A stretch of 64,000 nucleotides of DNA from contig CAYOOO010000004.1 in assembly GCA_964405655.1 (NCBI GenBank), positions 9,013 to 73,012 on the forward strand, given 5' to 3'. Both the position numbers and the translations under genes were made by a program. The DNA is from an uncultured Gammaproteobacteria bacterium. GTDB lineage: Bacteria > Patescibacteriota > Microgenomatia > Daviesbacterales > UBA10151. Every line of letters starts with the position of its first letter. Positions within the stretch are counted from its first letter, which is position 1. Of the stretch, positions 17,157 to 60,092 are shown in pieces. The notes below the pieces were generated by a model. That model made no database searches, was not told the DNA's origin, and saw only the letters and a program-made list of their open reading frames with translations.

Positions 17157-17158
17157 CT

Positions 17159-31815: not shown

Positions 31816-32494
31816 ATCCCACTATAAATAAAGTCCCACAAAATTGTAAAATTGGGCAGAAGATAGGCTTAATTGTACTTCTAATACCAACCTTACTTAA
31901 AAGGTTCCTTAATCTTGGTGATGGAGGGAAACCAAAGGAAAAACATCCTTGAATCCTGATATCTTTAAACCCAACTCTTTGAAATGATTCTTTCCAAAAT
32001 TTTGCGCCCTTAACATTTATGTGGGTCGGATCATATGGTAATAATACTTTCCCTAGTATAGTACCCTCTAGATCCCCATTAGGGGTTGAGGCTAAGAATA
32101 TCCCTCCCTTATTTAATACCCTAAAAGCCTCAGCAATTACAAAATCTGAGTTCTGAGTATGTTCTAGCAGGTCAAAAGCAGTTACTGCATCCAATAAACT
32201 ACCTTTAAATGGCCACCTATCCTTAGACACATCTACAATTTTGACAGTAGCTTTGGTTCTCTTTCTTGCCTGAGATACAGCATAATCAGAAATTTCCAGA
32301 CCGAAGGTTTCGATATTTGCCTGGTCACAGAAACTTAAAAACTCACCAAGCGCGCAACCAACGTCCAGAATACTGCCTATCTGTTTTTTTCTTGATAACA
32401 GAAACTTGAGATGATATTTTAAGATCTGCTCTCGCTCATTGCTTTCTAACTTATAAAAGTCATCAAAATACTTTTTTCCGTAGCTATTCCCCAT
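31805..32494 (-). CDS. Class I SAM-dependent methyltransferase
   Basis: ILDVGCALGEF motif I and LASTPNGD (motif post-II). Length is 229 aa. Confidence 0.7.
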   Translation of the reverse strand: MGNSYGKKYFDDFYKLESNEREQILKYHLKFLLSRKKQIGSILDVGCALGEFLSFCDQANIETFGLEISDYAVSQARKRTKATVKIVDVSKDRWPFKGSLLDAVTAFDLLEHTQNSDFVIAEAFRVLNKGGIFLASTPNGDLEGTILGKVLLPYDPTHINVKGAKFWKESFQRVGFKDIRIQGCFSFGFPPSPRLRNLLSKVGIRSTIKPIFCPILQFCGTLFIVGFKN

Positions 32495-35400
32495 CTTCTT
32501 TTTGCCACCAAGTTGAGGCTTTTTTATGAATTAACCTTAATCCCTTCTTTGATAATCGAACAATCAGAAATCCCCTAAACAAGATTAAGTCAATTAGAAT
32601 TAAAATCGTTGCCAAAGAGATCAAATGATATATTTTCCATCTGATACCACCAACAAATTCAAATTTGACTTCTTTAGGTTTAACATCTTGAGAGAAAGGA
32701 ACATACATATAACCCGGGTAAGTAGGTCCAGCTTTGTATAGAGTCAAGCTCTTGCCACTCTCAGATTTTGCTTTCCAGCTGTCATAAAGCTCTTCTTTAA
32801 ATAGCACTCCTCTACTTCCTGCTGAATCTACTTCTCTTTTCTCAGGAGATATGAATCTATAGTTGAAATTACCAATTTTCTTTTCTGAAATATCGACTCC
32901 GGAAAAAAGCATATTAATCAAAAATTTAGTTTCTTCCTCGTTATAATCCCGGATTGCATGATATGGTAAATTAAACCCGGTCCAAATTAGATTACCTGAT
33001 CCGATATCGATTGAAGCAGCCACAACCTTGCCGTTGTTTTTTAAGATAACTTTTGCTTCTGATTGAACAGCGCTATCGCTATCTGGGTGTGAAACATTCC
33101 AAGGTTTTCCGTCAAAATCTAAAGGAGAAAACTTGTCAAAAGATATCCCTTTAGTTAGATTACTATCTGCAGTTTCGACTTTCCAATCTCGCCCAATATT
33201 ATTTCTGATAGTATGTTTAATTGGTAAGATATCGGGTAAATTACTGCTGGCAGCTTCTTTTCCTTCAGGTCCGGTATCAATGTAGATCCGCCCGCCTTTC
33301 TCTAGATACTTTGACAGTGTCCCCCAGGCTTTTGATTTATTTTTATAATCATAGCGGTACAGTATCACCTTATCAAACTTCCTTAGCTCGCCCAGGCTAT
33401 AATCATCGATAAAATTTGATTTTGTAGCAATTACAATCTTTTGGCTATTTAAATTGCGCATGCCGATAAAACGGTAGATTGTGTCATAAGCGACTGCATC
33501 CCCAATTAGTAATATCGGACTAGCATTATTGGGTGCCAGTATTGGCGAAACCAATTCAGGTTTAACACGGTAATATTTTAGTGTCTGGGTTAAATCAGGA
33601 AAGAACTTTCCTATTTCTTCTGGTTTCGGACCATAACGCCTAATTACTCCTAATGATTTTACCTCTTCCTCTTCTGCTACATAATCTTTGGTTGTGACAT
33701 GTTCTGCCAATACTGAGGGCGAGCTGCTGGCATAATTTCCTAAATAGTAATATACGGAATTCCAATCAAGAAGAAATTTGGTATTTTCATAAGCCACGTT
33801 TTCAGGAGTTTTCCAGTCAATAATCAGTGAGGCTTTGGCATCCTTGCCTGATGGCCCCATCAAAGAGTCTAGCCAGAATAGTCCCCATCTTTGAAGGGTG
33901 TTAACCGGAGGGTCTACATAGCCTCTTGCCAAAGGCATATCATATAGCATTGGCCACCATAAATTAACCGTGGCATCAACTGTATAAAGTCTTTTATTCT
34001 TGTCGTTTGGATCTATAAACTTAGGGGTCAATTTTTGAGCTATTTCCTTCATTTCAGCATCGGAAGTTTTAACATTCAAAATATCAGGATATGGACTAGA
34101 TGCTGTGGATAATAAATCTATCCGGGCGATTAAAGCCTTGGTTAAACCCGGTGTAAAATATAAATATCCAAAAACTATAAAAAATACATTTGCCACAACT
34201 AGAGTTGTCCAGGAAGTTATCTTGAAAAATTTAACCTCACTAAACCTGTTAAAAGCTAGCGATATTTGTCCCCAAAATACTGCTGCTAAAGAAGCAGCAG
34301 CCACCGGTATAGGCCAAAAGGCTTTGTACCAACCAGTAATGAATAGATCTATGCCTCTTGAAAACAAAAATATCGTGATAAACTGATAAATCAAAAAAAT
34401 TGCAAAAGGCAAGACACACAATATACTTCTTAAACGATGCTTGCGGAATATGATTGTGACAACAAAGCAAAGAGCAAATATCCCTACCAAATACCAAATT
34501 AACTGCTGCGTATCATTTAATACATAATTGAATTGGTCATGGCTCCATTTAATAATATTGGCGGCAGTTGATCCTTCTACCGGACCGCTTTCTAATGTAT
34601 GGCGATTTATTAACGAATTAGAAAATATTGAACCAACCTTTCCTAGATAGGAAAAAAGTGTGGCAGGTAGTGTGCTGCTAAAATTTGATAAAACTCCAGG
34701 CAGACCAACTAAAAACCAAAGTACAACAAAGACAATCAAATTTTTGATTCTTTGACCGAATTTTAATCCTTCCCTACCGCTGTAAAAGAGTAAAATCAGG
34801 ATGCTTAAAGGAATAATAACGTTTAAAAAAGCTTGCGGGTGTCCCAATAACCCGAGTCCAGCTGCAATACTGGCCAAATATAACCATCTCTTTTTATATG
34901 TATTCAAAAATCTGATTAGTAAGAAACCAACTAACGGGTAGAAGGCTTGGGTAGACCAGAAAGGAATACCGCCAGCCCAAACTAAGGCCCGATACAAATT
35001 TACAGATAAAATAGTCGCAATAGTTAAAACCAAAGACAAACCAGCGTTAAAAGAAAGCTCCTTGTAGAAAAAATAGCAAGAGATGGCAAAGATCAGTAAA
35101 AAGAACACAGCAAAATGCATCACTCCTTGAATTAGTCCAAACTTTTCTATAAAGGGAATCATCCCTAAAAAATACAACGATGGATAATCTAAAGAGAATG
35201 GTTGTCCTCCAAACCAAAAATGTTTCCAGGCAAAGGGCCTTAAGAAATCATGCCACTTGATCATGTAACTGGTATAAGTTGCAGATAAAAATAAATCTAT
35301 TCCTCTGACTGGATTTTTTGTTAGATACCAGCTGATAACAGGTTCTAAAGTTTTATAAACTATTCCCGCTGCAGCAATATTTATCAGTCCGCTGACTGAG

Positions 35401-35561
35401 AATAAAATCCATCTGAGTATTCTTATATGGATTTTTTCTTCTTTTTTAACTAGCTTCAAAACGTCACCAGATAGTTTCTCAACATCTTCCTGAATTTTTG
35501 CTTCATTTAGTTTTAGAGAGTCAGTAGTATTACTCATCTTCTTTCTGCCACCATTTACCAA
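32484..35561 (-). CDS. Giant polytopic membrane protein (GT-C-like N-terminal TM domain + large extracytoplasmic domain + C-terminal TM)
   Basis: 1025 aa. About 13 TM helices in the first ~450 aa, then a soluble domain with WWPMLYDMPLARGY, and a final TM (LISLATILILIDLILF). Paralog of the adjacent 973-aa gene. Confidence 0.5.
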   Translation of the reverse strand: MVNGGRKKMSNTTDSLKLNEAKIQEDVEKLSGDVLKLVKKEEKIHIRILRWILFSVSGLINIAAAGIVYKTLEPVISWYLTKNPVRGIDLFLSATYTSYMIKWHDFLRPFAWKHFWFGGQPFSLDYPSLYFLGMIPFIEKFGLIQGVMHFAVFFLLIFAISCYFFYKELSFNAGLSLVLTIATILSVNLYRALVWAGGIPFWSTQAFYPLVGFLLIRFLNTYKKRWLYLASIAAGLGLLGHPQAFLNVIIPLSILILLFYSGREGLKFGQRIKNLIVFVVLWFLVGLPGVLSNFSSTLPATLFSYLGKVGSIFSNSLINRHTLESGPVEGSTAANIIKWSHDQFNYVLNDTQQLIWYLVGIFALCFVVTIIFRKHRLRSILCVLPFAIFLIYQFITIFLFSRGIDLFITGWYKAFWPIPVAAASLAAVFWGQISLAFNRFSEVKFFKITSWTTLVVANVFFIVFGYLYFTPGLTKALIARIDLLSTASSPYPDILNVKTSDAEMKEIAQKLTPKFIDPNDKNKRLYTVDATVNLWWPMLYDMPLARGYVDPPVNTLQRWGLFWLDSLMGPSGKDAKASLIIDWKTPENVAYENTKFLLDWNSVYYYLGNYASSSPSVLAEHVTTKDYVAEEEEVKSLGVIRRYGPKPEEIGKFFPDLTQTLKYYRVKPELVSPILAPNNASPILLIGDAVAYDTIYRFIGMRNLNSQKIVIATKSNFIDDYSLGELRKFDKVILYRYDYKNKSKAWGTLSKYLEKGGRIYIDTGPEGKEAASSNLPDILPIKHTIRNNIGRDWKVETADSNLTKGISFDKFSPLDFDGKPWNVSHPDSDSAVQSEAKVILKNNGKVVAASIDIGSGNLIWTGFNLPYHAIRDYNEEETKFLINMLFSGVDISEKKIGNFNYRFISPEKREVDSAGSRGVLFKEELYDSWKAKSESGKSLTLYKAGPTYPGYMYVPFSQDVKPKEVKFEFVGGIRWKIYHLISLATILILIDLILFRGFLIVRLSKKGLRLIHKKASTWWQKEDGE

Positions 35562-38451
35562 TATTAAAGCTAAGCTTATTTAGCTTCTTAAAGAATACTA
35601 ACCTCATAATCCTGCCTCCTAATAAGTAATCTAATATCAGAATTAAGATTACTGATGTTAAGATTGAATAAAGCAGCGTAAAGGTATCTCCTTTGTAGTT
35701 GAATTCAACCTCAACTGGTTTATCTCGAAGCTGTGTCGGAATCGGAACGTACATAAATCCTGGACCCGTTGGGCCCGCAGCTAGGATTTTTTGACTTTGA
35801 CCATTAATCTTAGCGGTCCAGACTGGCCAAAATTCTTGCCTTAACAGCACTGCTTTGGCATTTTGTGTTTTGATCTTAATCTTGCGGTTGCTGATAAATT
35901 GGGCTTGCGAGGGCGGAGGATCATTTTTTTCCAGCGGAACTAACTGAGCGATTAATGACCTGACAAATTCTCCTTCCTTGATTGATTTATAGACATTGGC
36001 ATGATAGAACAGGTTCATTCCACTCCAAATTACTTTGCCACCCTCAAAAGATCCACTAACAATCAAGGGTGTATTACCGGTTTTTAGTATAACCTCAGTA
36101 TTATTCTTTAAATTCGTTGGTAGTGAAAAGTTCCACTCTTTACCATCTATAACTGGTGGTCCAAAATCTTTTAAATCCCAGCTTGTCCCCAACTCCTCCC
36201 TCTTTGTGCCTTCTATTGGGAAAAAATTCGGCAGGTGAGTATTTTTAGTTTGGAAAACATCACTGCCTGTTTCTACAAAAACTTTGCCACCTTTTTTGAG
36301 ATACTTTTCTATTTTACCCCACCCTGAATTATTATCTCCATCTTTATATCCGTATAATATGACAGCATCCAAATTAAGATTTTCTAAATTAGGAATTTTT
36401 GCAAGTGAGGGGGAAAGCCAGACTGTAACAAGTTTCTGTGAGTTTGTATTAGTTATGGCTAAGCTTCTGTTAAAAGTTTCAAAGCTACTAAACGAGCCGA
36501 TCATGCCAACAACCGAGGCGTTGGTAGCTGATGCAACTGGTGAAGCCAAACCCTCTTTGAATTTATAAAATTTCAGCGCATCGCTATCATCATTAATCCA
36601 TTCCATTTTGCCATCTTTGGTATCGTAAACCTTAACTCTTCCGGCGATAGGAGTTTGCTCTTCTTTTTCAAAAATATTTTTATCCTCGAGTAAGAAGCTG
36701 GATGGCGGGTTGAAAGAGTCACTCCTCTCGTGACCACCTTCGAAAAAGCCTATTGAGAACCAATCAATTAAATATAGCGCGTTGTTTTTAGCAATATCTT
36801 TGGGGTACTTGAAATCATCAACAATCGGATCCCTGCCCTGATTTGAAGCTAAAGCAATATCAGTCCAAAAAAATGACCCTGCCATACCTGAGCCAATTGG
36901 AGAATCGGTATAACCTCTAAACAGTGGCATCTCATAAAAAGTCGGCCACCAAATATTGACTTTCTGGTCAGCGCTATACAGACGGTATTGGTAATCTCGT
37001 ACTGGAAGCCAGGCTGGAACTAGTTTTTGGCTTAATCCTTCAAATTCCTTGCGGTCCTTAAACGGCTTACTAAGTAAGCCAGGGTAAACTCCAGATTTTT
37101 CCCTGAACCTGACAGTATCTAACTGTCTATCAGTAAAATCTTCCAGGGGTTGCTGTTTACTCCAATAAAAATATCCTGATGCCAAAATTACAGCTGTGAA
37201 TGCTATTGCCAGAATACTTTTTGCAGCTAAACTATCAAGGAGGCCGGTCCGCTCTATTAAAGAAGCCCAAAACATCCGGTATCCATAAGCAACACATGCT
37301 CCAAATGCCAAAGGCATTGCCCAAAAAGCTCGATACCATCCTCCCTGAAAGAAAGGTATTCCTATAGAAAGTCCGTAAATTGACAAAAAGGCAAACCCCA
37401 AAAACATTAAAAAAGGGAGCGCACCCAATACTCTAAATCTTTTCTTTGCTATAACTAAACCAATAACCATTAAAGCAATTGCTACTGCAAAAAACGCAAA
37501 AAATATTTCATTTACTTCAACTAAAAACCTCCAAAACTCTTGTCTGTTATAGGCTGCGATTGCTTTAATGGTTTCAATCGGAGTAGTACTGGTAACTGCG
37601 GAACCATAATCAGGATTACTGACAGATCCTGAAAATCTAGTTAGGACAGCATTAATTTGATTTAGAATAAATTTGGGTAATAACAGAATATTCTGTCCAA
37701 AAAATTGTTGTAGCTGAACATAGGATGTTAGGACAACTAAGCCAAGAAAAATTCCTAGGTCTAAAAGCCTTCTTTTAATTGTCGCCTTAATTTTTTCAAA
37801 GTAGCCAAAAGCAATAATTAGAAAAGCAAATAATAAGATGTGTGAAATCAATATCTGCGGGTGAGCCAATGTAGAAAGTCCTGCGACCGCAGCAGAAAGC
37901 ACTAAAAATTTTCTGGTAGTGCTTTGAGTATACAAAACTAAAAAAGCAATCGAAAGCGGTAAAAATGTCATTGTTCCAACATATTGCAAGTTACCTCCCC
38001 AAATAATCGGACCCCAACTGGCTCTGGAATATATACTAAAAAGCGCCAAAACCAAAGATAATGCTTTATTTCTGGAAATGACCCAGAATAAAAAGTAACT
38101 GCTTAGACCAAAAGAAAATAGAGATAGCACAGAATATATTAGAGTTGCTTGTTGAACACCAAAATATGGTACTAATAAAGCATTCAGGTAAAAATGGAGG
38201 GACGGGTAATCGTATGCATACGGATACCCAGCCCAATTAATTGGTTTATAACCTAAGTAACGAGCATCGAAATGACGGGAATAATATGCTACGTTAGATA
38301 CCATGTTATAAAAGTCGACTCCGAGAATAACAGGATGATTGATGTACCAATTAGAAATAGGTAAAAATAGAAATACAAGTAGTGCAATAGCAGATACATG
38401 AGTTGTCAAATGAAATAGAACGCTTGCTACTACTTGTGATAATCTTTTCAT
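35530..38451 (-). CDS. Giant polytopic membrane protein, tandem paralog of 32484..35561
   Basis: 973 aa with the same architecture. Shared motifs: WWPTFYEMPLFRGY, GFMYVP, C-terminal KWWQKEDE (versus WWQKEDGE in the paralog). Confidence 0.5.
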   Translation of the reverse strand: MKRLSQVVASVLFHLTTHVSAIALLVFLFLPISNWYINHPVILGVDFYNMVSNVAYYSRHFDARYLGYKPINWAGYPYAYDYPSLHFYLNALLVPYFGVQQATLIYSVLSLFSFGLSSYFLFWVISRNKALSLVLALFSIYSRASWGPIIWGGNLQYVGTMTFLPLSIAFLVLYTQSTTRKFLVLSAAVAGLSTLAHPQILISHILLFAFLIIAFGYFEKIKATIKRRLLDLGIFLGLVVLTSYVQLQQFFGQNILLLPKFILNQINAVLTRFSGSVSNPDYGSAVTSTTPIETIKAIAAYNRQEFWRFLVEVNEIFFAFFAVAIALMVIGLVIAKKRFRVLGALPFLMFLGFAFLSIYGLSIGIPFFQGGWYRAFWAMPLAFGACVAYGYRMFWASLIERTGLLDSLAAKSILAIAFTAVILASGYFYWSKQQPLEDFTDRQLDTVRFREKSGVYPGLLSKPFKDRKEFEGLSQKLVPAWLPVRDYQYRLYSADQKVNIWWPTFYEMPLFRGYTDSPIGSGMAGSFFWTDIALASNQGRDPIVDDFKYPKDIAKNNALYLIDWFSIGFFEGGHERSDSFNPPSSFLLEDKNIFEKEEQTPIAGRVKVYDTKDGKMEWINDDSDALKFYKFKEGLASPVASATNASVVGMIGSFSSFETFNRSLAITNTNSQKLVTVWLSPSLAKIPNLENLNLDAVILYGYKDGDNNSGWGKIEKYLKKGGKVFVETGSDVFQTKNTHLPNFFPIEGTKREELGTSWDLKDFGPPVIDGKEWNFSLPTNLKNNTEVILKTGNTPLIVSGSFEGGKVIWSGMNLFYHANVYKSIKEGEFVRSLIAQLVPLEKNDPPPSQAQFISNRKIKIKTQNAKAVLLRQEFWPVWTAKINGQSQKILAAGPTGPGFMYVPIPTQLRDKPVEVEFNYKGDTFTLLYSILTSVILILILDYLLGGRIMRLVFFKKLNKLSFNIGKWWQKEDE

Positions 38452-38557: not shown

Positions 38558-39256
38558 ATGAAGCTTTCTATAATAATTCCGGTTTATAACGAAGAACAAA
38601 CCGTTGGTCAGGTCATATCGAAAATCAGCAAGTTAGAGTTAGGTAAAATTACTAAAGAAATTATTGTTGTTGACGATGCTTCTACAGACAAAAGTAAAAG
38701 CATAATTAATGAACAAAAAAAATTAAATCCCAATACACTTAAGGTCTATATCTCTATAATTAACCTGGGAAAAGGAGCGGCAGTTCGCTTTGGTTTAAAG
38801 TATGCAACTGGGGATATAATCATTATTCAGGATGCGGATTTAGAATTAAATCCAGCGGAATATCCCAAATTGATATCACCAATTATTGAAAATCAAGCTG
38901 ATGTAGTTTATGGCAGCAGGTTTAAGGGTTTTAAAAATGAAAATATTCCTCTTAGAACAATCCTGGCAAATAAATTTCTGGTCATTTTAACTAATATTTT
39001 GTTTAAGGGTCATTTAACAGATATGGAAACCGCTTATAAAGTTTTTAAAAGCTCTATAATAAAAGATGTCAACTTACGCTGTGTCGAATTCGATTTCGAA
39101 GCAGAAGTCACAGCCAAAATTCTTAAGGGTGGGTATAAAATAGTCGAAATTCCGATTGAATATAAACCACGAACTCCGAAAGAGGGTAAGAAAATGACTT
39201 GGCGGCATGGCATTGAGGCGATTTATACATTATTTAAATATCGTTTTTTTGATTAG
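38558..39256 (+). CDS. GT2 polyprenol-phosphate glycosyltransferase (DPM1/ArnC-like)
   Basis: LSIIIPVYNEEQTV...VVDDASTD...IIIQDADLE (DxD). Short (232 aa) soluble GT-A typical of Und-P/Dol-P sugar synthases. Confidence 0.7.
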   Translation: MKLSIIIPVYNEEQTVGQVISKISKLELGKITKEIIVVDDASTDKSKSIINEQKKLNPNTLKVYISIINLGKGAAVRFGLKYATGDIIIIQDADLELNPAEYPKLISPIIENQADVVYGSRFKGFKNENIPLRTILANKFLVILTNILFKGHLTDMETAYKVFKSSIIKDVNLRCVEFDFEAEVTAKILKGGYKIVEIPIEYKPRTPKEGKKMTWRHGIEAIYTLFKYRFFD

Positions 39257-40495
39257 TAAATTATTTATTATCAAAAGATAGATCGATGTAGCTGCAAAAA
39301 ATAAGCTTCTAGCTAGATTTTGAAGATCTATACCAGGCTTCTGCTGGGGATTTATCATATAAGATGGTGTAAAAGTTTGAGTTACTTGAGGTGTAACATT
39401 CTGGAACAAACCTAAGGTCTTAAGGGGAATAAATAAACCAACTGAAAGATCCGCTGAGGAAAACATGAGAATTATCAACCAGCAGCCAAATAAAATAGCT
39501 GGCAAATAAAAGTTCTTCAACTTACTTAAAACCAGCTCAATAACTATAAATGGAGTAACCCACAAAAACCACTGAACATGGATCTTAATTAGGCTAAACA
39601 AAATCAGTAATGTGCTTAAATAACCTTGCCAAAGCTTAACTGTTTGAGCCTTAAAAAAGAAGAACAGGTAATACATTAGAAGAATAGTAATTACAGGAAA
39701 GATCACAAAGTCTTCAGCAAGAAAAATCTTACTTTCTAAAATTCTTAAATTATAAGGAGAAAATAGGACCATCTGCTCAAAACCAGCAGAATTTAAAAAA
39801 GGCCAAATAGTGAATACTATTGGGGCTAAACCTAAAAATAGATAATAAATTTTATTCCAATTATTTTTAACTGGGATTAGAAGCATTAAAGGCAAAAAGA
39901 GCAAACCAAAAAATTTATATGCTCCGCCTACCCCAATTGCCAAACAGGCAAGCGCCAATCTTTTTCTACTGGCAAGATATAGTCCTAAAACTGCAAAAAA
40001 AGTGGGGATTAAGTCCAAATTCCCCAAGGCCAAAAGATAATAAGATAATGGGTTGAACAGCCAAAGAAGTAAAGCAAGTCTCTTTTGAACAAGGCTCTTA
40101 AAATATTTCCAAATTAAATATCCTGTTCCTAAATCAAAAAATAAATATATGAGCTTGTACCAGAATATATGCCAGATAACGTCCGTTCGATTATAAATTC
40201 CAAATAGGTTATTAGTCATACTGTCCAAAAAGCTTTGACTTGTAAATGGACTAATTATCTTTGTCCAGATTGCAAAAGTATATAAAGTTAACGGCGGATA
40301 TGGGAAAAAGGAAGTGGTAAAACTTTTAACTAAATTATGATCTTTAGGCAGTGATAAGTAAAAATCATAGATATTAAATATTCCCTTATCTGCAAATAAG
40401 TGGGAGGCGATGACTATATCCCATAAATCTGAATGAGCTGTAATAGACAGCAAAATAACTTTTAAAACTATTGCAAATATAATTGCTTTTTTCAT
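39230..40495 (-). CDS. Polytopic membrane protein, GT-C-like (possible mannosyltransferase-type)
   Basis: 421 aa, with more than 10 TM helices. Confidence 0.4.
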   Translation of the reverse strand: MKKAIIFAIVLKVILLSITAHSDLWDIVIASHLFADKGIFNIYDFYLSLPKDHNLVKSFTTSFFPYPPLTLYTFAIWTKIISPFTSQSFLDSMTNNLFGIYNRTDVIWHIFWYKLIYLFFDLGTGYLIWKYFKSLVQKRLALLLWLFNPLSYYLLALGNLDLIPTFFAVLGLYLASRKRLALACLAIGVGGAYKFFGLLFLPLMLLIPVKNNWNKIYYLFLGLAPIVFTIWPFLNSAGFEQMVLFSPYNLRILESKIFLAEDFVIFPVITILLMYYLFFFFKAQTVKLWQGYLSTLLILFSLIKIHVQWFLWVTPFIVIELVLSKLKNFYLPAILFGCWLIILMFSSADLSVGLFIPLKTLGLFQNVTPQVTQTFTPSYMINPQQKPGIDLQNLARSLFFAATSIYLLIINNLLIKKTIFK

Positions 40496-40496
40496 C

Positions 40497-41366
40497 TTAT
40501 GAATTCCTGGCTATGAGCCCAATACTTCCGACTGGGAATGGAATTTTAAAATCAAGCCAGTTTGGAAACCTTAAGTATCTTAAATAGGCAAATTTTCTAC
40601 CACCATAAGCGATAGTCAAGGTAATCAGTTGTTTAAGCGAATACCAGCGAATATCATCAGAATAAAAATCTATATCCTTGAAGTTAGACTTTAACAGAGC
40701 AATTTTAAGAGCCTTTTCGTTCCAGAAGGTTAAATGCTCCTGATGTTTATAAGAAAACCAGTTATTCTTTAATAATTTTTTCCACAAGCTTTCTGAGTTT
40801 GGGGTAGTTATTAACACTATCCCATTTGGTCTTAAAATTCTAGATAAATTTTTAAGAAAAGTTATTGGATATTTTATATGTTCAATTGTTTGGAATAAGA
40901 CAACAGCATCATAGTTTTTCTCTTTAAGAGAAACATCTCCGACCTCCCCAATTAATACTTTTACTTGATATCTTTTCCAAGCCATTTTTTTTGCTGATTT
41001 ATTTATATCTATGCCCAAAACTTGGTAATTATTTTTCCGAGCCAAATGTAAAAATACGCCTATACCACAACCCACTTCTATTAGTCTCCCCCTATTGGGA
41101 AGATATTTATTTAATCTTCTTAATTGGTCACTAAAATAAACTTCAAAGGAGCTTAGAAACAAATCATAATCTGGGTAACCTTTAGTCAGGCTTTCTTTTT
41201 GACTAAAGTAATCTCTTGTATAGATTTTCTTAATCTGCTGATCACTAGGAAGAGAATCTCTCCACTCTAAATGGCAGTTTTGACAGACTTTAATTTTCTC
41301 TTTATTAGTAAGATTTTTTGTCAAAATCTTACTCCCCTCACAAACAATACACTGACTATTCTTCAC
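40497..41366 (-). CDS. SAM-dependent methyltransferase with N-terminal zinc-ribbon
   Basis: CIVCEGSKI...CQNCHLEW, then LIEVGCGIGVF motif I and FQTIEHI. Confidence 0.7.
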   Translation of the reverse strand: MKNSQCIVCEGSKILTKNLTNKEKIKVCQNCHLEWRDSLPSDQQIKKIYTRDYFSQKESLTKGYPDYDLFLSSFEVYFSDQLRRLNKYLPNRGRLIEVGCGIGVFLHLARKNNYQVLGIDINKSAKKMAWKRYQVKVLIGEVGDVSLKEKNYDAVVLFQTIEHIKYPITFLKNLSRILRPNGIVLITTPNSESLWKKLLKNNWFSYKHQEHLTFWNEKALKIALLKSNFKDIDFYSDDIRWYSLKQLITLTIAYGGRKFAYLRYLRFPNWLDFKIPFPVGSIGLIARNS

Positions 41367-43063
41367 TTCTCCTCCTGCTTTAGCTGATAAATACTGATAA
41401 CTGGCCCAAATTGAATATCTTTTAAAAACTTAACTTTATCTAAAGCTTGATAGTCAACTCTCCATCCATGAGGATCATTATCAAAAACAAATGTCGGAGT
41501 AAACTGATTAACTAAAAGGTAATTTTTATTAAGTGAGCTCAAAAAAGTTTTATCAAAGCCTTGATTATCTCTATGAGCCCAGCTTGAGACTATTAAATAT
41601 TCTACCCCTTGAACTTGATAAGAGTCTGTATCAACAATTTTTTGATTGCTGGTTTGGTCCAAAGTTGGCACTCCTATCAGATCATAACCAACCTTATCCT
41701 GACTTACTTCTAGTGTTGCCAGTAAATTTTGGGCAGGTAAGCCTAAACTTTGAGCTTGATTGTAAAGCGCTAAAAGTCTGAACTTACTTAAAACTAGTGG
41801 CGGGCCTTCAAAAGATGGAACGCTATCCCCGACCGCTCCCTCAACTACTATTTTGGAATTTGCAGGTATATTTTTTTCAATCCAGTTCTTTGAAATAGTC
41901 CTGGTATCTGGTTGGGAGATCAAAAAGTCAAACTTTAAGGTTCTTATTAAGTTATTACTGCTTATTAGAATAATTATTATGAGTATTAGATAAAAGTTTT
42001 TAACGATTCGCCAAAGAAAGACTGCTGAAGTTAAAGATAAAAAGGGTATCATCGCCACAGCCCATCTGGGAAAATTACCTCCAGCTAAAATAATTCCCAA
42101 GAAAATAGTTAAAACTGAAAATGAAGCTATAAACGCTTTTTTCCCTAGTTTACCTGAGATACTAGTGATTAAAGCTAACAGGTAAATAAATGAACTACTC
42201 AAACCAAAGGCTGGGAAAAGCTGATCTTTAATATAGCCAAACCAGACCGGCTGATAATTTAGGCTTGGCCCAATCATTCTATGCTTCAAAACTAAGTCAA
42301 TGTTAGATTGTATGAATCTTTGGCTGTCTAAAATAATATAGGGATTAGTAGCTATATAAGCTAGAATAGACAAAACCAGTACGCCAATTAACTCTTTTAT
42401 GTTTATTTTTTTAAAAAAATACAGTAATAGAACAATCAAACTAATGGGAAAGTAGATAATTTTAGTTGAGACAGCCAAACCTAAAGATATTCCTAAAAAA
42501 ATTAATGAACGTTTCCTTTCTTTGACTGTTTCAAAGACTTTTAGAACAAAATAAAAAGTTACCAGCAAGAATAATGAAGATAGTGTCTCTTCTTTTATAT
42601 AATGAGATTCTTTAGTAAATAAAAAACTGGAAGATAACAAAAACAGGGCTGTTAAAGCAGTCTTTTGGCCGAAAAAACGGTTTCCAATCACTAGAACCAG
42701 ACTGGCACAACCTAAGCTTACTAAAAGTGAAAAAATCCTTCCCAGGATTATAAAAATGGTTGGGTCTGAAAGATAAGCCACATAGAAACTAAAAGGAGAG
42801 TGATAAATCCCCAAGATCAAGCCTAAAATATATTGAATAAAAAAAACGGGAATTAGAAGGTATGAAAGTAAGATCGGGTGAAGGTAGGTATCAGGCTTAA
42901 GAAAGTTGGAAGCTGCATAAAAGGCTGAATAGATTAGCTTGCCCTCATCAGGGTGATAGATAAAAGGCAAACCAAAATTAATCCCCCATATTCTGGAGAT
43001 TAAAAACCAAAAAAATATGGCCAATATAACTTTGTTAATTTTGAACCTGTGTAATTTGACCAT
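41363..43063 (-). CDS. GT-C fold glycosyltransferase, PMT_2/ArnT (family 39-like)
   Basis: GLPFIYHPDEGKLIY first-loop motif (YHPDE), characteristic of the dolichyl-/undecaprenyl-phosphate-sugar-dependent GT-C family. Length is 566 aa. Confidence 0.55.
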   Translation of the reverse strand: MVKLHRFKINKVILAIFFWFLISRIWGINFGLPFIYHPDEGKLIYSAFYAASNFLKPDTYLHPILLSYLLIPVFFIQYILGLILGIYHSPFSFYVAYLSDPTIFIILGRIFSLLVSLGCASLVLVIGNRFFGQKTALTALFLLSSSFLFTKESHYIKEETLSSLFLLVTFYFVLKVFETVKERKRSLIFLGISLGLAVSTKIIYFPISLIVLLLYFFKKINIKELIGVLVLSILAYIATNPYIILDSQRFIQSNIDLVLKHRMIGPSLNYQPVWFGYIKDQLFPAFGLSSSFIYLLALITSISGKLGKKAFIASFSVLTIFLGIILAGGNFPRWAVAMIPFLSLTSAVFLWRIVKNFYLILIIIILISSNNLIRTLKFDFLISQPDTRTISKNWIEKNIPANSKIVVEGAVGDSVPSFEGPPLVLSKFRLLALYNQAQSLGLPAQNLLATLEVSQDKVGYDLIGVPTLDQTSNQKIVDTDSYQVQGVEYLIVSSWAHRDNQGFDKTFLSSLNKNYLLVNQFTPTFVFDNDPHGWRVDYQALDKVKFLKDIQFGPVISIYQLKQEEK

Positions 43064-44576
43064 TTTTATAAATTAAAATCAGATCTTTTGAGGAAACAAA
43101 ATCTGATAGAAAATCCACTGTTAGAGTATTTTTGTCTAAAAGTCTGGCTGTAAAATATTCATTACTAACCACTGCTTGTCCATTTGAGTTGATCTGAGGA
43201 TGAAAGAGTACAAAACCAGATTCGCTTTCTAAGCTTAAACTGCGAGCATTCAAAAAACTGTAACTTGAGCTTACTCCAACTGGACTTGGTGTTAAGATAA
43301 TCTGGCTTAAAAGTTCTTGTCCTACCATAAACTCGACTGCTTCCTTAAGGTGAGTCCTGTAGATAATGGCCCCGTTAATACTATCTGGAATGTTAATCAG
43401 AAAAACTCTATCTATAGTCCTTGGCATATCTTTTAAAAGTAATAATAGTTGGTCAGCTATCTGCTTGGAATAAAGACCAGCTATTTTCCAGTTGTAATTC
43501 TGATTGTAAATATAGAAGGAACTTAATAATACATAGCAAGAAATAGCCATCCAAAAAAATACACGCAATGTTTTCTTGTATTTTTGTAGATGGAAACTAG
43601 CTAATTTTATTATTAAAAAAGAAAGCATGATGGAAATAAACACGCCTGGTAGATAAAGTTGTCGAAGTTGTGTTGGTGTATTGGCTGTCGGCAAAAAAGA
43701 AATCCCGATGAGGAGATAAAGCAATAAAGATATTGATTTGAGTGAGAATTTTCCTAAAAACAACAGTCCAAGAAACCCAACTAAATAAATTACAAATACA
43801 TTGGAAAGAGCAATAATTTTCAGATGAGGTGCAAGCGAGTAAGGATTTAAAGTGCCTAAGGCTAAAAATCTTAAAAGGAAGTAAAAGAGAAATACTAATA
43901 TCAAGCTTAAAAAGATATGTCTGTATTTCAAAAGTAACTTACTTATTACTTTCTTTTTGTCTAAAATTAAGACTATAACCAGAGAAGCTACGGGAAAAGT
44001 AACAGCAGATTCCTTGCTAAATAAAGCCAGAAGAAAAAGGATCCAGGTAACTAAAAGCCACAACTTTTTCTTCGATTCGACGTACTGTATTAGAGTAATT
44101 AAAGCAGCTAGATAAAAAGTAGTAACTAGCAAATCATATCTGCCTCCGACGCTCCAGGCTATTGCTTCAGTCTGGAAAGGAAAGATGGTAAAAAGTAAGC
44201 TTGAAGTAGCAGCCAAAAAAACATTTTTTTTAAATAGTAAATATACAAATAAGCTAACTAAGGCTATGTTAATAAGATGAAAAATTAAACTTGTTAAATG
44301 AAAAATTACAGGTGTCATTCCTAACAAAACAGTATCTAGCCAAACCGTCCAACCTACCATGGGTCTAAAGTAAGGCGGTAAAGAGATGCCTGCAAGATCT
44401 GGAGGTAGAAATAAGCGAAAAGAGTTGATTAAATCCAAACCTCTTACCCTAGTCCACCATTCATAGTCTTCTCCTACAAAATAAGCATCTAAAATTCGCT
44501 GGTATAAAAATACTGCCACTAAACAAGATGCAACGACACATAAGAGTAGGTTTCTTTTTTTAGCTGAATCCACCAT
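43035..44576 (-). CDS. Polytopic membrane protein, GT-C-like
   Basis: 513 aa with more than 10 TM helices and an acidic first loop (FVGEDYEWW). Confidence 0.4.
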   Translation of the reverse strand: MVDSAKKRNLLLCVVASCLVAVFLYQRILDAYFVGEDYEWWTRVRGLDLINSFRLFLPPDLAGISLPPYFRPMVGWTVWLDTVLLGMTPVIFHLTSLIFHLINIALVSLFVYLLFKKNVFLAATSSLLFTIFPFQTEAIAWSVGGRYDLLVTTFYLAALITLIQYVESKKKLWLLVTWILFLLALFSKESAVTFPVASLVIVLILDKKKVISKLLLKYRHIFLSLILVFLFYFLLRFLALGTLNPYSLAPHLKIIALSNVFVIYLVGFLGLLFLGKFSLKSISLLLYLLIGISFLPTANTPTQLRQLYLPGVFISIMLSFLIIKLASFHLQKYKKTLRVFFWMAISCYVLLSSFYIYNQNYNWKIAGLYSKQIADQLLLLLKDMPRTIDRVFLINIPDSINGAIIYRTHLKEAVEFMVGQELLSQIILTPSPVGVSSSYSFLNARSLSLESESGFVLFHPQINSNGQAVVSNEYFTARLLDKNTLTVDFLSDFVSSKDLILIYKNGQITQVQN

Positions 44577-45444
44577 CCCAGATATATTTGTCAGTAGAAG
44601 AGTTTGGTGACTTAGGACTTACTTTAAAAAAACCTCTAATAATCTTATATATTTGAATAGGCAAAAATAAGACCGGATTTAGGATTGGATGTTTAAATAG
44701 AAGTCTGTTAAACCAGTAGCGCCAGAGAAAGCTTTTACTGGCATATTTTTTTAATAATTCAAAAGTTTCTTCGCTGATCTCTTTTGATTTAGTAAATATT
44801 ATATTGTTATTGTGTAATCTGGCATAAAAAAGTTTAATTCGGCAAAATCTGACTACACAGTGACTGGCGATACATAAAGCTAGAAAAGAAGTATCCGAAA
44901 TCCAAGTAAGCGGTAACAAGCCTACTCTGGCTAAAATGCTTTTTCTAAAAATCATACCGATGCCAGCTCCACCATAGTTAAATAGATCTTCAACCTTGCT
45001 TCCATAATTTGTCCCAATCGGAGGATATAAAATTATTCTACTTTTGTTATCTAAATTATAAAAAACGCCTCCACAGACTAATACATCCACTTCTGGATGA
45101 CTTTCTAAAATATCAATTGCTTTCTCTAAACTTTTAGGGTAGATAAGGTCATCATCAGATAAAGGCTTAATATATTTACCATGGGAGACTAGTATGGCTT
45201 TATTGGTAGCATGGGTTGGACTGATATCTGGTTCAGAAATAAATAAGTCTATGAAATCAGAATTATTTCTAATAATTTGCAGACTATTATCAGCTGATCC
45301 TCCATCAACTACAATAAGCTCGTCATTTTTCTTTTTATATTGTTTTATATTTTTAAGTGCTTGATTTAAGGCTTTTGCCCGATTTTTGGTGGCAAGAATA
45401 AATGTGACCCTCTTTTTGAGTTTGCCTTCAAAACTATAATCCAT
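44560..45444 (-). CDS. GT2 glycosyltransferase
   Basis: VTFILATKNRAKAL...VVDGGSADNS...SDDDLIY (DxD). Confidence 0.65.
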   Translation of the reverse strand: MDYSFEGKLKKRVTFILATKNRAKALNQALKNIKQYKKKNDELIVVDGGSADNSLQIIRNNSDFIDLFISEPDISPTHATNKAILVSHGKYIKPLSDDDLIYPKSLEKAIDILESHPEVDVLVCGGVFYNLDNKSRIILYPPIGTNYGSKVEDLFNYGGAGIGMIFRKSILARVGLLPLTWISDTSFLALCIASHCVVRFCRIKLFYARLHNNNIIFTKSKEISEETFELLKKYASKSFLWRYWFNRLLFKHPILNPVLFLPIQIYKIIRGFFKVSPKSPNSSTDKYIWDGGFS

Positions 45445-45446
45445 AC

Positions 45447-46598
45447 TTAAAATAACTGGCGATATAATTGTTCAATTTTACTCCCTATAATATTCGAATT
45501 GTATCTACTCCTAGATCTGATAAAGGCTTTTTTTGCCAGTTCGGATCTTAAAGATTTACTATCTATCAACTTACTCATTTTCTTGACTAAATCTTGACCA
45601 TTTCCCTCCTGAAAAAATAAACCACAACTGCCCACTACCTCTCGAGTAACTTCAGTATCAGAAACAATGATAGGTAGACCAGACGCCATTGCTTCAACCA
45701 AAACCATCCCATATTGCTCTTCCCAGTCTTCTTGGCGTTCACTTGCTAGTATAAAAATATCTGCCAAGTTATATACTTCTGGCATCTTAGAGTATGGCAA
45801 TAAACCTAAGAAGTGAACATGATCACCAAGACCTAGCCTATTAGCTAGCTCCTTGAGTCTATTTTCTATTGCACCCTGACCTGCTAAGATCAATTTAAAG
45901 TCTACCTTGTACTTGGGTAAAGCAGCAACTGCCTTTATTAAGGTTTTAAATCCCTTTGCTTCAACCATCCTACCAATAGATAAAAGGACGGTCTGATCAC
46001 TATTTATTTTAAGCCTTCTTCTTAGCTTAGGGATGCCATTTATATCGGGTTTAAAAAGGTTTAAATCTACTCCCATGGGAATTAATTTAACTTTACTAGG
46101 ATCAGCTCCCTCGGCTATTAAAGTATTTTTGGCTTTGGTTGTCGGAACAACAAAACAATCAACACCTCTTATTACTTTTGCTTTAATATTAATTTGCTGT
46201 CTATAACTTTCATGACTTTTGGGAATAGTCTCCCAGACTGTGGCGACAACTTTTTTTATCATCCCCTTCTCTTTAGCTTTGACTGCCTGCCAGCTATAAC
46301 CATTATAAACTTCTGCAACATGGGCTATATCAAAGCCTTTGATAGATTTTTCCAGATTTATCAGAAATAAAGGACTTCCCAAGATTTGATATAAAAACTC
46401 TATTCCCAAAGGTATTTTACTAGCTATCTCGCCTAAGCAATGTAGATACCTTATGGGAATTTTTAACTCATCAGTTGCTAAGCTAGATTTAACCCCTTTT
46501 GACCCAATTGCCAGGATCTTGTTTTTTGCTCCAAGAGATTGGTAATTTACCATTTCCCACTTATTTAAAGAAGGCCCTCTGATAATTGCAATTTTCAT
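45447..46598 (-). CDS. GT4 (group 1) glycosyltransferase
   Basis: EQYGMVLVEAMASGLPIIVSD motif. Confidence 0.7.
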   Translation of the reverse strand: MKIAIIRGPSLNKWEMVNYQSLGAKNKILAIGSKGVKSSLATDELKIPIRYLHCLGEIASKIPLGIEFLYQILGSPLFLINLEKSIKGFDIAHVAEVYNGYSWQAVKAKEKGMIKKVVATVWETIPKSHESYRQQINIKAKVIRGVDCFVVPTTKAKNTLIAEGADPSKVKLIPMGVDLNLFKPDINGIPKLRRRLKINSDQTVLLSIGRMVEAKGFKTLIKAVAALPKYKVDFKLILAGQGAIENRLKELANRLGLGDHVHFLGLLPYSKMPEVYNLADIFILASERQEDWEEQYGMVLVEAMASGLPIIVSDTEVTREVVGSCGLFFQEGNGQDLVKKMSKLIDSKSLRSELAKKAFIRSRSRYNSNIIGSKIEQLYRQLF

Positions 46599-46603: not shown

Positions 46604-48166
46604 TTAACTGCCCTTTTTAGAAAAAATCTTATTTGATAAGTAATTTAGGGTGATGCTTCTAACCAAAACTAAATCTTTAATTATCTCTTTTTTCATGAAA
46701 ATATATATCAGTAGAGTGTATAAAAATAATCCAAATAGTAGAAAAGCTAACAAACTGATAAGGTTGTCTACTTTATATAAACTTTTCAAGACCAAGATGC
46801 TCAAACCAGTTAAAATAGACAGAATAAGTGGTGGAATAAAGATTCTCAAATAACTAAATGTAAAATATCTGTAAACTCTAGATAGAGTGACAAAAGTGCT
46901 TATGGATACGATCACCATTGCCAAATTAACACCCCAAAATCCAAATATCATCACCAGAGGAACTGTTAAAATCCATTGTAATATCGAGACAATCAAGTAG
47001 AAGTTACGATAATATTTAACTTCTCCCAGTGCTAAGAGTGTATTGACAACTAAAGCATTAATGGCTGTCAAACTGGTTTGGATAATGGCTAAATTTAAAG
47101 ATGTCAAACCATCTAACCAGCGTTGACCATAGATAAATCTTGTTACTTCAGAGGATAATACTAATACTAATGATGAAAGTCCAAACGTAGATATTAAAAT
47201 AATCTGCATAAATTTGCTAAATATCTTCTCTGCTAATTTAAGATTATGTTGCAACCTTGACATCAGAGGAAAAACTATTTGGTCAATAATAGATGCCAAG
47301 ATTGACGGAACTGCAGCTACTCCCCCAGCCCAGGTAATAAGTCCAACTGCTTCTGCTCCACTTAAGTGACCTGGTCCTGGAAATCGGCCAATAAAAACTG
47401 CGATAATTGCACCATTGAATAGTCCAACAATTGTGGTGAGTTGAAAAGAAAGTCCAAGTTTGAAAATTGACTTAAGCTTATTAAAATTAAAGCTAAATCC
47501 GAAAGGCCATGGGTAAAGAAGATAGTAAACTAATAATTGAACGATCTTGCTTAAAGTATAGGCATAGACAAAGCTCGCTGTTCCTAATCCCCAAATTGCA
47601 AATAGAATCGTTGAATACTGAGTGGTGAATAAACCTGTAACCTCACCAATAACACTTCTTCTGTATAGGAGGTGTCTCTCTAGTAGGTTGGGTGAGATAG
47701 AATTTAAATTGCCAATTATATTGGCAAAGACTAAAATCCTTAACCATCCTACTGCTTGCTTTTCTAACTCTCCCCCATAGAAAGATAAGATCAAAGGACT
47801 TAAACTCCAGATAAGCGCTCCAATAAGCAAAGCTAAGAATAAATGAATCCACCAAATGCTTCGCAGAAGAACCTTGTCAGGCTCTTCTTTCATTTGGATA
47901 ATTACTCTCCCTAACCCTAAATCTGCAAAAACCCAAAAAAAGGTTAAAGTAAATTGAATTATGGCAAACATTCCAAAATCTTGAGGAAAAAGTATTCTAA
48001 CTAGAATTAGGTTAGAAAGAGTTATTATTGCTTGATTAACAAATTTTTTAAAAACCAGCCAGCTAAGACTGGTTAGAATTAATTTTTTTACCTTCTTTTT
48101 AGAGTCAAAGTTCCAGATTAATACTAAATTATTCTCTTCTAATTGACCCTGAGAGTTATTTGCCAT
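46604..48166 (-). CDS. wzx: Wzx-type oligosaccharide flippase (MOP/polysaccharide biosynthesis protein family)
   Basis: 520 aa with about 14 TM helices. The N-terminal segment SWLVFKKFVNQAIITLSNLILVRILFPQDFGMFAI is typical of Wzx/RfbX. Confidence 0.55.
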   Translation of the reverse strand: MANNSQGQLEENNLVLIWNFDSKKKVKKLILTSLSWLVFKKFVNQAIITLSNLILVRILFPQDFGMFAIIQFTLTFFWVFADLGLGRVIIQMKEEPDKVLLRSIWWIHLFLALLIGALIWSLSPLILSFYGGELEKQAVGWLRILVFANIIGNLNSISPNLLERHLLYRRSVIGEVTGLFTTQYSTILFAIWGLGTASFVYAYTLSKIVQLLVYYLLYPWPFGFSFNFNKLKSIFKLGLSFQLTTIVGLFNGAIIAVFIGRFPGPGHLSGAEAVGLITWAGGVAAVPSILASIIDQIVFPLMSRLQHNLKLAEKIFSKFMQIILISTFGLSSLVLVLSSEVTRFIYGQRWLDGLTSLNLAIIQTSLTAINALVVNTLLALGEVKYYRNFYLIVSILQWILTVPLVMIFGFWGVNLAMVIVSISTFVTLSRVYRYFTFSYLRIFIPPLILSILTGLSILVLKSLYKVDNLISLLAFLLFGLFLYTLLIYIFMKKEIIKDLVLVRSITLNYLSNKIFSKKGS

Positions 48167-51103: not shown

Positions 51104-51111
51104 AAAAGCTT

Positions 51112-51297
51112 ATGCTAAAAAACATTGGTCAAGTAGCGGGATTTTTATCTGGTATATTTTTTATGTCTACTGTTTGGTTTCTAATCTTAAGATTATCTGG
51201 ACGCATCCCTCAAGACTTTGGATACTTTCAAGTTTTGATAATTGTAATTTTGGTGGTAATCTCTGGATTAACTTTAACAAAATATCTAAATGGTTAA
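51112..51297 (+). CDS. Small two-TM membrane protein
   Basis: 61 aa, hydrophobic. Overlaps the next small gene by 8 bp. Confidence 0.3.
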   Translation: MLKNIGQVAGFLSGIFFMSTVWFLILRLSGRIPQDFGYFQVLIIVILVVISGLTLTKYLNG

Positions 51298-51541: not shown

Positions 51542-51549
51542 CATACTAA

Positions 51550-56100: not shown

Positions 56101-56137
56101 AACGTTTTATGTAATTAAAAATTGGGAAGAACTAAAG

Positions 56138-57598: not shown

Positions 57599-57658
57599 AA
57601 ATTTGAAGCTTACAACTAATCTTAGTCATATATTTTAGGAAATATCAATAGGTTATTT

Positions 57659-60089: not shown

Positions 60090-60092
60090 ATT

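Follow-up and report, generated by a model that had tools for sequence, protein, structure and literature searches.

A predicted polyprenol-phosphate-sugar-dependent glycosylation locus in Candidatus Daviesbacteria

Related systems and layout of the locus

Three-component glycosylation systems combine a synthase, a flippase and a GT-C glycosyltransferase, a design described as widespread and in which a MATE-family protein is documented in the flippase role (PMC11127046). Examples are GtrA/GtrB/GtrV of Shigella and Salmonella phages, CsbB/GtcA/YfhO, GacI-L and the pentofuranose systems (PMC11127046). A stretch of 64,000 nt from contig CAYOOO010000004.1 (assembly GCA_964405655.1; the window) carries a gene group that resembles these at positions 38558–44576, where a short glycosyltransferase of family 2 (GT2) lies next to three GT-C-like membrane proteins. 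With a probability of roughly 75%, this interval forms the core of an extracytoplasmic glycosylation system, dependent on polyprenol-phosphate sugars, in Daviesbacteria, monoderm members of the candidate phyla radiation (CPR).

Two further groups of systems are close in design. In Streptococcus mutans, the Pgf cluster (PgfS/PgfM1) brings together a GT-A enzyme, two GT-Cs and anchored adhesin substrates, and in the GtrB/PgtC2 system of Streptococcus pyogenes the YfhO-family GT-C PgtC2 glucosylates Ser/Thr-rich regions (PMC12041528). In eukaryotes and Actinobacteria, dolichol-phosphate-mannose synthase (DPMS) or Ppm1 works with protein O-mannosyltransferases (PMT, GT39) (PMC5882110). The window resembles the three-component systems in that a GT2 predicted to be a polyprenol-phosphate-sugar synthase lies beside GT-C genes, with a MOP-superfamily flippase candidate in the GT-C operon. 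It differs in the lack of transmembrane (TM) helices in the synthase, the lack of a GtrA/SMR-type flippase, an embedded methyltransferase, and the presence of at least three GT-Cs in one operon and at least eight in 64 kb, where the described systems have one; the host is a CPR bacterium. The pairing of a GT-A or GT2 synthase with one or two GT-Cs is shared with Pgf and GtrB/PgtC2, whose products O-glycosylate Ser/Thr-rich surface-protein regions, while protein glycosylation in the present case is putative.

The archaeal Agl pathway of Haloferax volcanii includes the synthases AglJ and AglD, the methyltransferase AglP, the MOP flippase AglR and the GT-C enzyme AglS. The same set of activities is predicted here (a lipid-phosphate-hexose synthase, an S-adenosylmethionine (SAM) methyltransferase, a MOP flippase and a PMT_2-type GT-C), AglJ is the best NCBIfam match of the GT2, and archaeosortase C is the second match of an exosortase-like protein elsewhere in the window. 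In contrast to Haloferax, the host is bacterial, all scores fall under the equivalog cut-offs, and no oligosaccharyltransferase of the AglB, STT3 or PglB kind is found in the window.

The host is Candidatus Daviesbacteria (Microgenomates, CPR). The 232-aa GT2 and the GT-C-like proteins E (566 aa) and D (421 aa) are identical to NCBI proteins from there, encoded on a contig of 89.5 kb, where they are labelled 'glycosyltransferase family 2 protein', 'glycosyltransferase family 39 protein' and 'hypothetical protein HYS93_01420', respectively. Exact copies are confined to three related sequencing runs, and the window has a G+C content of about 35%. Groundwater samples in which the organism occurs are SRR12113384, SRR12113420 and SRR12113424. 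The members of Patescibacteria (CPR) live attached to other cells; to our knowledge, their surface chemistry is almost unknown, and the present lineage has no cultured member. A paper on Saccharibacteria pili calls the glycosylation processes there "unexplored" (PMC11623550), and in the open-access literature no paper was found linking CPR to GT-C enzymes, exosortases or polyprenol-sugar pathways. The pathway design, found here in an unstudied lineage, is textbook knowledge, and generic family names are attached to most of the genes in NCBI. What adds weight is the number of GT-C genes, a widespread family of TM-less synthases and a link to exosortases. The locus provides a concrete parts list for CPR envelope glycosylation: two candidate lipid-sugar synthases, at least eight GT-Cs, one MOP flippase, five methyltransferases and candidate protein acceptors.

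All open reading frames (ORFs) of at least 100 aa in the window were scanned with Pfam and NCBIfam; statements on genes absent from the window refer to this set. The region 17.4–53.3 kb forms one large (~36-kb) glycan-assembly locus, with eight GT2 genes (six ordinary, two DPMS-like), five GT4 genes, five SAM methyltransferases, RmlD, a carbamoyltransferase, an AlgX-like protein, one MOP/Wzx flippase and many large polytopic membrane proteins. The only sugar-precursor genes nearby are RmlD and one epimerase. An earlier note, made from the DNA sequence alone, had placed five ORFs in the interval (GT2, D, a methyltransferase, E and F), and their coordinates hold. It described the GT2 as 'followed by' three GT-C-like proteins. 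The three are present, but their genes are on the minus strand and converge on the GT2, whose 3′ end overlaps that of D by 27 bp; they belong to an operon headed by Wzx/MOP, GT4 and ordinary GT2 genes. This operon is tightly packed, in the order Wzx, GT4, GT2 (294 aa), F, E, methyltransferase and D, with junctions of 5, 2, −17, −29, −4 and 1 nt. On its other side the GT2 is divergent from the 973-aa ORF C (35530–38451), as had been noted, across a gap of 106 bp in which promoter-like sites are no more frequent than in shuffled sequence.

The GT2 synthase candidate and the GT-C enzymes

The 232-aa GT2 (38558–39256, plus strand) matches PF00535 with an E-value of 2e-33, and its DxD motif (D92-A93-D94) is invariant in a 31-sequence family alignment with a mean column identity of 61%. 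Its closest solved relative is the DPMS of Pyrococcus furiosus (5mlz, E 2.2e-22), residues 23–248 of which align with GT2 residues 1–227. This alignment spans the whole catalytic domain, including the half after the nucleotide-binding part, which holds the acceptor and interface-helix region. Further PDB matches were to ArnC (about 3e-15, residues 2–210) and GtrB (4e-11). Unlike the small GT2, a control GT2 from the same locus, encoded in the Wzx-headed operon (44560–45444), matched only the N-terminal halves (about residues 13–136) of ordinary Leloir GT2s in the PDB, and not DPMS. Five of the six best NCBIfam matches of the 232-aa protein are polyprenol- or dolichol-phosphate sugar synthases: AglJ (1e-30), PgfS, PpgS, ArnC and a halobacterial dolichol-phosphate-hexose transferase. 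No hydrophobic segment reaches the TM threshold, either in this protein or in its 31 relatives, and a scan of the helical hydrophobic moment singled out no membrane-binding helix. These matches support the earlier assignment to a short, soluble enzyme of the DPM1/ArnC kind, predicted to act as a polyprenol-phosphate-sugar synthase. A processive or polymer-forming GT2, long and TM-bearing, which the earlier note had named as the outcome that would speak against its reading, was considered as the identity of the protein and rejected because the protein is short, lacks TM segments and aligns with DPMS over its full length.

Relatives of the TM-less GT2 are numerous, with more than 570 at 40–57% identity in a species-level genome collection, and these range over Chloroflexota, Acidobacteriota, Planctomycetota, CPR and the DPANN archaea (Woesearchaeota). 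For a glycosyltransferase, conservation of this degree between domains is uncommon; it might stem from horizontal spread or from a core role that has been conserved. Since the family is widespread and appears to be uncharacterised, one enzyme assay would annotate many genomes.

A second TM-less GT2 of 277 aa (17477–18310, plus strand) also matches DPMS 5mlz (E 1e-14 over residues 9–241) and GtrB (E 5e-10), and its NCBIfam matches are PgfS, PpgS and ArnC. The presence of two paralogues suggests two different lipid-linked sugar donors. The 277-aa gene opens a plus-strand glycosyltransferase operon, and its product carries the motif IRDTQVGMKFF. In a related locus (L018), its close orthologue (E 6e-87) lies two genes from a member of the 232-aa GT2 family, with a MOP flippase between them.

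Of the three GT-C-like proteins in the interval, E (41363–43063, minus strand) is GT39/GT83-like and passes the gathering scores of both PMT_2 (35.2 bits against 26.1) and PMT (PF02366; 30.5 bits against 22.7). The first-loop motif YHPDE, already pointed out in the earlier note, occupies residues 36–40, straight after TM1; among the 21 aligned family sequences E40 never varies, and D39 conservation is at least 90%. A PDB search with the single sequence gave no meaningful match, and the family profile was needed. This profile matched the protein O-mannosyltransferase Pmt1 best (6p25_A, E 1e-12), the DE of YHPDE aligning with the FDE of Pmt1, and also ArnT (5ezm, E 7e-11, profile positions 106–379). 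An AlphaFold2 model (predicted local distance difference test (pLDDT) 89, predicted template-modelling score 0.90) shows a C-terminal extracytoplasmic alpha/beta domain at about residues 385–566. All significant Foldseek matches of the model are GT-C structures (ALG9/12, STT3/AglB/PglB, ArnT and DPY19), with a TM-score of 0.51 for ArnT 5f15. E combines a PMT_2-type TM core with a C-terminal outer domain, as in the GT83 enzyme ArnT.

The GT2 and E together invite comparison with two known pairs. As in the DPMS/Ppm1–PMT pair, the closest solved relative of the GT2 is a DPMS and E passes the Pfam PMT model; however, no Pfam match to PMT_4TMC or MIR was found in E at E ≤ 0.01, an ArnT-like outer domain stands in their place, and no DPM3/Ppm2-type partner was found in the window. 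The ArnC/ArnT pair, the analogy drawn in the earlier note, is likewise matched on both sides, by the GT2 and by the TM bundle and outer domain of E. It differs in that ArnC has two TM helices and the GT2 none, ArnA, ArnB and ArnD genes are lacking among the window ORFs, and no lipid A acceptor would be expected in a monoderm CPR cell.

F (43035–44576, minus strand, 513 aa) has about nine TM segments and the first-loop sequence GEDYEW, and passes PMT_2 with 31.9 bits against the gathering score of 26.1. D (39230–40495, minus strand) is GT87/PIG-M-like at the level of its family: among 38 members, 25 match GT87 (best E 1e-9), eight PIG-M and seven PIG-U, and the family profile matches glycosylphosphatidylinositol (GPI) mannosyltransferase 1 in the PDB (E 2e-10). 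In its first loop, H21-x-D23, both H21 and D23 are invariant. In Foldseek, the AlphaFold2 model of D (pLDDT 90) has no match other than GT-C folds, with PIG-U, PIG-M, ALG6, ArnT, ALG3 and PimE at the top. In this respect D resembles the mycobacterial GT87 enzymes PimE and Rv2181, and PIG-M, with which it shares a conserved first-loop Asp; its identity to solved structures is 12–15%, and phosphatidylinositol mannoside (PIM) or GPI acceptors would not be expected in CPR. Together, the profile matches and predicted folds support the view that D, E and F are GT-C enzymes related to users of polyprenol-monophosphate sugars (PMT, ArnT, PIG-M/GT87).

Upstream of the GT2 lies a divergent operon (31805..38451, minus strand) that encodes a SAM methyltransferase and two giant paralogues, B (1025 aa, 32484–35561) and C (973 aa, adjoining the GT2), whose ORFs overlap. 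B and C are 28.5% identical over their full length (E 3e-121), and in each about nine TM segments are followed by a large outer domain and a C-terminal TM segment. YfhO-type proteins also have a TM bundle followed by a large outer domain, and may thus share the overall layout of the giant pair. In the giant family, which has 653 cluster representatives, PF10131 (PTPS_related) is matched by 24 of the 37 members sampled. The profile of the family found no sequence relative in the PDB. In a profile–profile comparison (hhalign), its N-terminal TM domain matched the GT39-like family with a probability of 93% (E 3e-7), and the first loop contains an invariant G44-x-D46. Membership of the giant pair among the GT-Cs is supported by profile–profile comparison only.

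Two further paralogues, G (708 aa) and I (610 aa; E 7e-28 between them), are encoded at 53524..59491 on the minus strand; the genes between them code for a polytopic protein of 486 aa and a protein of 149 aa. The G/I family matched the giant family (hhalign probability 98.3%, E 2e-14) and the GT39-like family (97.2%, E 3e-11). Another PMT_2 protein (26877..28313, plus strand, 478 aa) scores 52.5 bits and has about ten TM segments and the first-loop sequence LDEA. Counting this protein with B, C, D, E, F, G and I, at least eight GT-C-type genes are present in the window. The GT-C calls that the earlier note had proposed to check with PMT_2 and GT39/GT83 profiles are thus borne out unevenly, with E and F above the gathering scores, D below the GT87 threshold when taken alone, and the giants recognised by profile–profile comparison.

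The association of synthase and GT-C genes is conserved beyond the window. In a different sample (L005), where the GT2 is 72% identical, a giant, F, the GT2, D, the zinc-ribbon methyltransferase and E are contiguous; there the orthologue of F adjoins the GT2, and the module is likewise embedded among glycosyltransferase and sugar-nucleotide genes. In another locus (L004), the GT2 is divergent from a PMT_2 gene. The neighbourhoods of 66 distant GT2 loci were compared by ORF calling and hydropathy counts, taking proteins of at least 350 aa with at least seven TM segments as large and polytopic. Such proteins make up 42 of 233 genes (18%) within two genes of the GT2, against 24 of 286 (8%) at five or more genes away (odds ratio 2.4, Fisher p 0.0014), and 26 of the 66 loci have at least one within two genes. 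Nine of the polytopic neighbours were checked by Pfam, and comprised YfhO, DUF2079, PMT_2, three MOP flippases, two proteins with no match and one unrelated protein. A MOP flippase immediately adjoins the GT2 in three of nine sampled related loci (L018, L022 and L029). Synthase, flippase and GT-C genes thus occur together repeatedly, although nothing obliges them to.

The same data bear on a different explanation, that the GT2 is an ordinary transferase, dependent on nucleotide sugars, whose substrate is a soluble or lipid-diphosphate-linked glycan, and that it lies beside the GT-Cs by chance. The GT-Cs would then use diphosphate-linked oligosaccharides, as oligosaccharyltransferases or polymerases do, or donors made elsewhere. 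Consistent with this, the GT2 has no TM helices and stays under all equivalog cut-offs, 60% of the related GT2 loci lack a polytopic neighbour, and STT3, PglB and AglB appear in the Foldseek list of E. Such an explanation is nevertheless improbable: the GT2 aligns with DPMS over its full length, the post-Rossmann half included, which the control GT2 does not; the enrichment of polytopic neighbours is significant and the module is kept in L005; and the sequence-level relatives of D and E (Pmt1, ArnT and PIG-M) are all monophosphate-donor enzymes.

Several observations count against a polyprenol-phosphate-sugar pathway. The GT2 falls well short of the NCBIfam equivalog cut-offs (AglJ, 107 bits against 325; the others, 69–73 bits against 370–529, among them PgfS with 73 against 500 and ArnC with 69 against 529), so it is the orthologue of no named enzyme. 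The C-terminal TM helices of GtrB, ArnC and the Pyrococcus DPMS are absent from it, and neither a GtrA-type flippase nor a DPM3/Ppm2-like partner was found in the window. D alone scores 20.2 bits for GT87, under the gathering score of 25, and the PTPS_related match of B sits in the extracytoplasmic domain and not in the TM core. Finally, 40 of the 66 distant loci have no large polytopic protein within two genes of the GT2, so coupling to a GT-C is not obligatory. The missing TM helices do not exclude synthase function, because TM-less synthases exist, such as human DPM1 and the catalytic domain of mycobacterial Ppm1.

Proposed pathway and its acceptors

The three-component logic of ArnC/ArnT type is well supported by inference, because the identities of the GT2 and GT-C proteins, the operon, the L005 module and the enrichment of polytopic neighbours all point to it. 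The pathway proposed in the earlier note, in which a lipid-linked sugar is made inside the cell and transferred outside, agrees with the sequence, profile, fold-prediction and synteny results. As the first step, the GT2 would attach peripherally to the inner membrane face, like TM-less DPM1-type enzymes, and there load polyprenol phosphate with a hexose or hexose derivative taken from a nucleotide sugar; its paralogue at 17477–18310 probably makes a second lipid-linked sugar. The lipid-linked sugar would then be flipped across the membrane. The sole candidate for this step in the window is the MOP/Wzx protein (46604..48166, minus strand; Polysacc_synt_3, E 6e-44; NCBIfam MOP flippase family), encoded by the first gene of the convergent operon. 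From its family matches it is a candidate flippase for a lipid-linked sugar, an oligosaccharide or both, and its cargo could equally be a diphosphate-linked oligosaccharide. Outside the membrane, D, E, F and probably B and C would use the lipid-linked donor, as their predicted folds and catalytic motifs suggest; an acidic first-loop motif is present in each of D, E, F and B/C.

The remaining gene of the interval encodes a SAM methyltransferase (40497..41366, minus strand; Methyltransf_23, E 3e-29). The N-terminal zinc ribbon that the earlier note had seen in it is confirmed by four Cys residues (C6xxC9...C28xxC31) conserved in the orthologues of three other loci (L005, L056 and L039). The protein must act in the cytoplasm because it has no TM segment. 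More speculatively, it probably methylates the sugar of the lipid-linked intermediate before export.

The acceptor of the D/E/F operon has an even chance of being a glycan or glycolipid built by the surrounding ~36-kb locus. The GT-Cs would then add side chains or extensions to an envelope polysaccharide or glycolipid in the manner of Gtr, GacI-L or CsbB-YfhO, or elongate a mannan-like chain as in mycobacterial PIM and lipomannan; the polymer itself would be assembled by the Leloir transferases of the locus and exported by Wzx. A glycan acceptor is favoured by the position of the operon inside this locus. D, E and F are translationally packed with Wzx and with two cytoplasmic Leloir glycosyltransferases, the ordinary GT2 (294 aa) and a GT4 (383 aa; both in 44560..46598, minus strand, by Pfam). 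Around them are the six ordinary GT2s, five GT4s, five methyltransferases, RmlD, carbamoyltransferase and AlgX-like protein of the 17.4–53.3 kb region, and L005 repeats this setting. The relatives of D also fit, since GT87/PimE and PIG-M are mannosyltransferases that act on glycolipids. The three-component design in general is widespread, as set out above (PMC11127046). Less easily reconciled with a glycan acceptor, the window yielded no initiating phosphoglycosyltransferase, Wzy polymerase, ABC exporter or ligase, and at least eight GT-C-type genes are far above the normal need of side-chain decoration.

The earlier note had proposed the C-terminally anchored repeat proteins of the window as acceptors. 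One of these is a Ser/Thr/Cys-rich repeat protein (60950..64000, minus strand) of at least 978 aa, its ORF being open upstream to the window edge at position 64000. It contains 25.4% Ser and Thr and 30 Cys, with at least six tandem repeats of about 53 aa that each carry four Cys, and ends in a (L/V)PE-type sorting signal of TLPEKT, a TM segment and KKLRESKR (TLPEKTLVLVLLVPFLPGLLKKLRESKRL). Next to it are genes for a 286-aa Ser-rich membrane protein (60093–60953; 13 Ser/Thr in 30 residues) and for a 201-aa protein of the exosortase/archaeosortase family (59484..60089, minus strand), which scores 36.8 against a cut-off of 23 for the TIGR04178 signature and 27 bits for archaeosortase C. A second candidate acceptor is an LPKTG (sortase-type) repeat protein (13118..14314, minus strand), recognised by direct reading, with DWWN repeats and a Ser-rich stretch in which 15 of 30 residues at position 270 are Ser or Thr. 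Following its TM helix and an RLRK cluster there are about 25 unusual extra residues (FGRLDKDSFTANFIWEERQFALDR). The protein has no match to TIGR01167, and no sortase gene was recognised in the window. The check suggested earlier, whether the anchored proteins are rich in Ser and Thr, thus gave a positive answer: beyond the overall content of the large protein, the candidate acceptors contain 30-residue windows with 13–16 Ser/Thr.

The exosortase-like protein has 17 relatives in metagenome contigs. A signal of (L/V)PE-x, a TM segment (PFLP) and a Lys/Arg tail is common to the window protein and to large Ser/Thr-rich proteins beside five of these relatives (L088, L090, L094, L096 and L098), and NCBIfam CTERM models gave no match to the (L/V)PE tails even at E ≤ 10. 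In three loci (L092, L093 and L098) the exosortase-like gene, its putative substrates or both have G/I-like and B/C-like GT-C proteins and a methyltransferase as direct neighbours. This recurrence gives some comparative support to a protein acceptor. The lipid-linked sugar would then be transferred by GT-Cs to Ser/Thr of the anchored proteins (60950–64000, 60093–60953 and 13118–14314), as in S. mutans Pgf or actinobacterial Ppm1/Pmt. The best match of the E profile is a protein O-mannosyltransferase with the catalytic DE aligned, and the Pgf operon is a precedent for a GT-A, two GT-Cs and anchored adhesin substrates together, as is the YfhO-family GT-C for transfer to Ser/Thr-rich regions (PMC12041528). 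Compared with Pgf, PgfS is the second-best NCBIfam match of the GT2; differences are that no PgfE-type epimerase is adjacent and that the anchoring signal is of the exosortase type, (L/V)PE-CTERM, besides LPXTG.

For the D/E/F operon, anchored proteins are a possible but somewhat doubtful acceptor. The exosortase loci contain members of the B/C and G/I families, but D, E and F were not found in them; neither the exosortase nor the anchored proteins have a homologue in any of the 80 GT2-related loci. The PMT_4TMC and MIR features that mark true PMTs are missing from E, the relatives of D act on glycolipids, and the candidate acceptors lie 9–25 kb from the interval, whereas D, E and F themselves belong to a glycan operon. 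Protein acceptors are considered more likely for the B/C and G/I families. The rest of the probability for D/E/F falls to both kinds of acceptor or to something else.

A broader proposal, rather unlikely on present evidence, is that this group of CPR (Microgenomates) has a coupled system for the O-glycosylation and C-terminal anchoring of giant surface proteins. Its parts would tentatively be a short (~200 aa) archaeosortase-C-like exosortase, Ser/Thr-rich (L/V)PE-CTERM substrates, the giant and G/I GT-C families and a methyltransferase, fed by TM-less DPMS-like synthases, and its (L/V)PE-CTERM signal might, with similar reserve, be one that had not been catalogued before. If true, the coupled system would be a bacterial counterpart of the processing of archaeal S-layer glycoproteins by ArtA and Agl.

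Other features of the window

The glycan locus is flanked by genes (49730–53307, plus strand) for a carbamoyltransferase of NodU/CmcH type and for an AlgX-like protein that has an SGNH domain and N-terminal TM segments, a hint that the product is O-acylated, carbamoylated or both, besides being methylated. Within the plus-strand glycosyltransferase operon, a methyltransferase (25001–26029) carries a C-terminal Trm112p-like zinc-ribbon domain (CPVC...CQRC); it is the second zinc-ribbon methyltransferase of the locus, with a domain arrangement different from that of 40497–41366.

At E ≤ 5, Pfam gave no match for C, G, H, I or a 501-aa polytopic protein (819–2324, plus strand). The latter and the 486-aa protein between G and I (56138–57598, minus strand) have about ten TM segments each and no Pfam match at this threshold. 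In the 501-aa protein an acidic sequence, GDQENY, comes directly after TM1, and the gene is preceded by an arylsulfotransferase-like gene; it may be another GT-C.

A mobile element was considered for the window as a whole and rejected because a housekeeping gene, Rho (11672–12958), is present and no mobility genes were seen. The G+C content is 0.40–0.43 at 12000–17200 and 60000–64000, against about 0.33–0.36 elsewhere in the window. The region 13–17 kb encodes Ala/Gly/Pro-rich secreted or anchored proteins, namely the LPKTG protein (13118–14314), 14363–15421 (with the tail PEIPGWAWV...RRRR) and 16329–17156, the composition of which looks foreign for a CPR genome.

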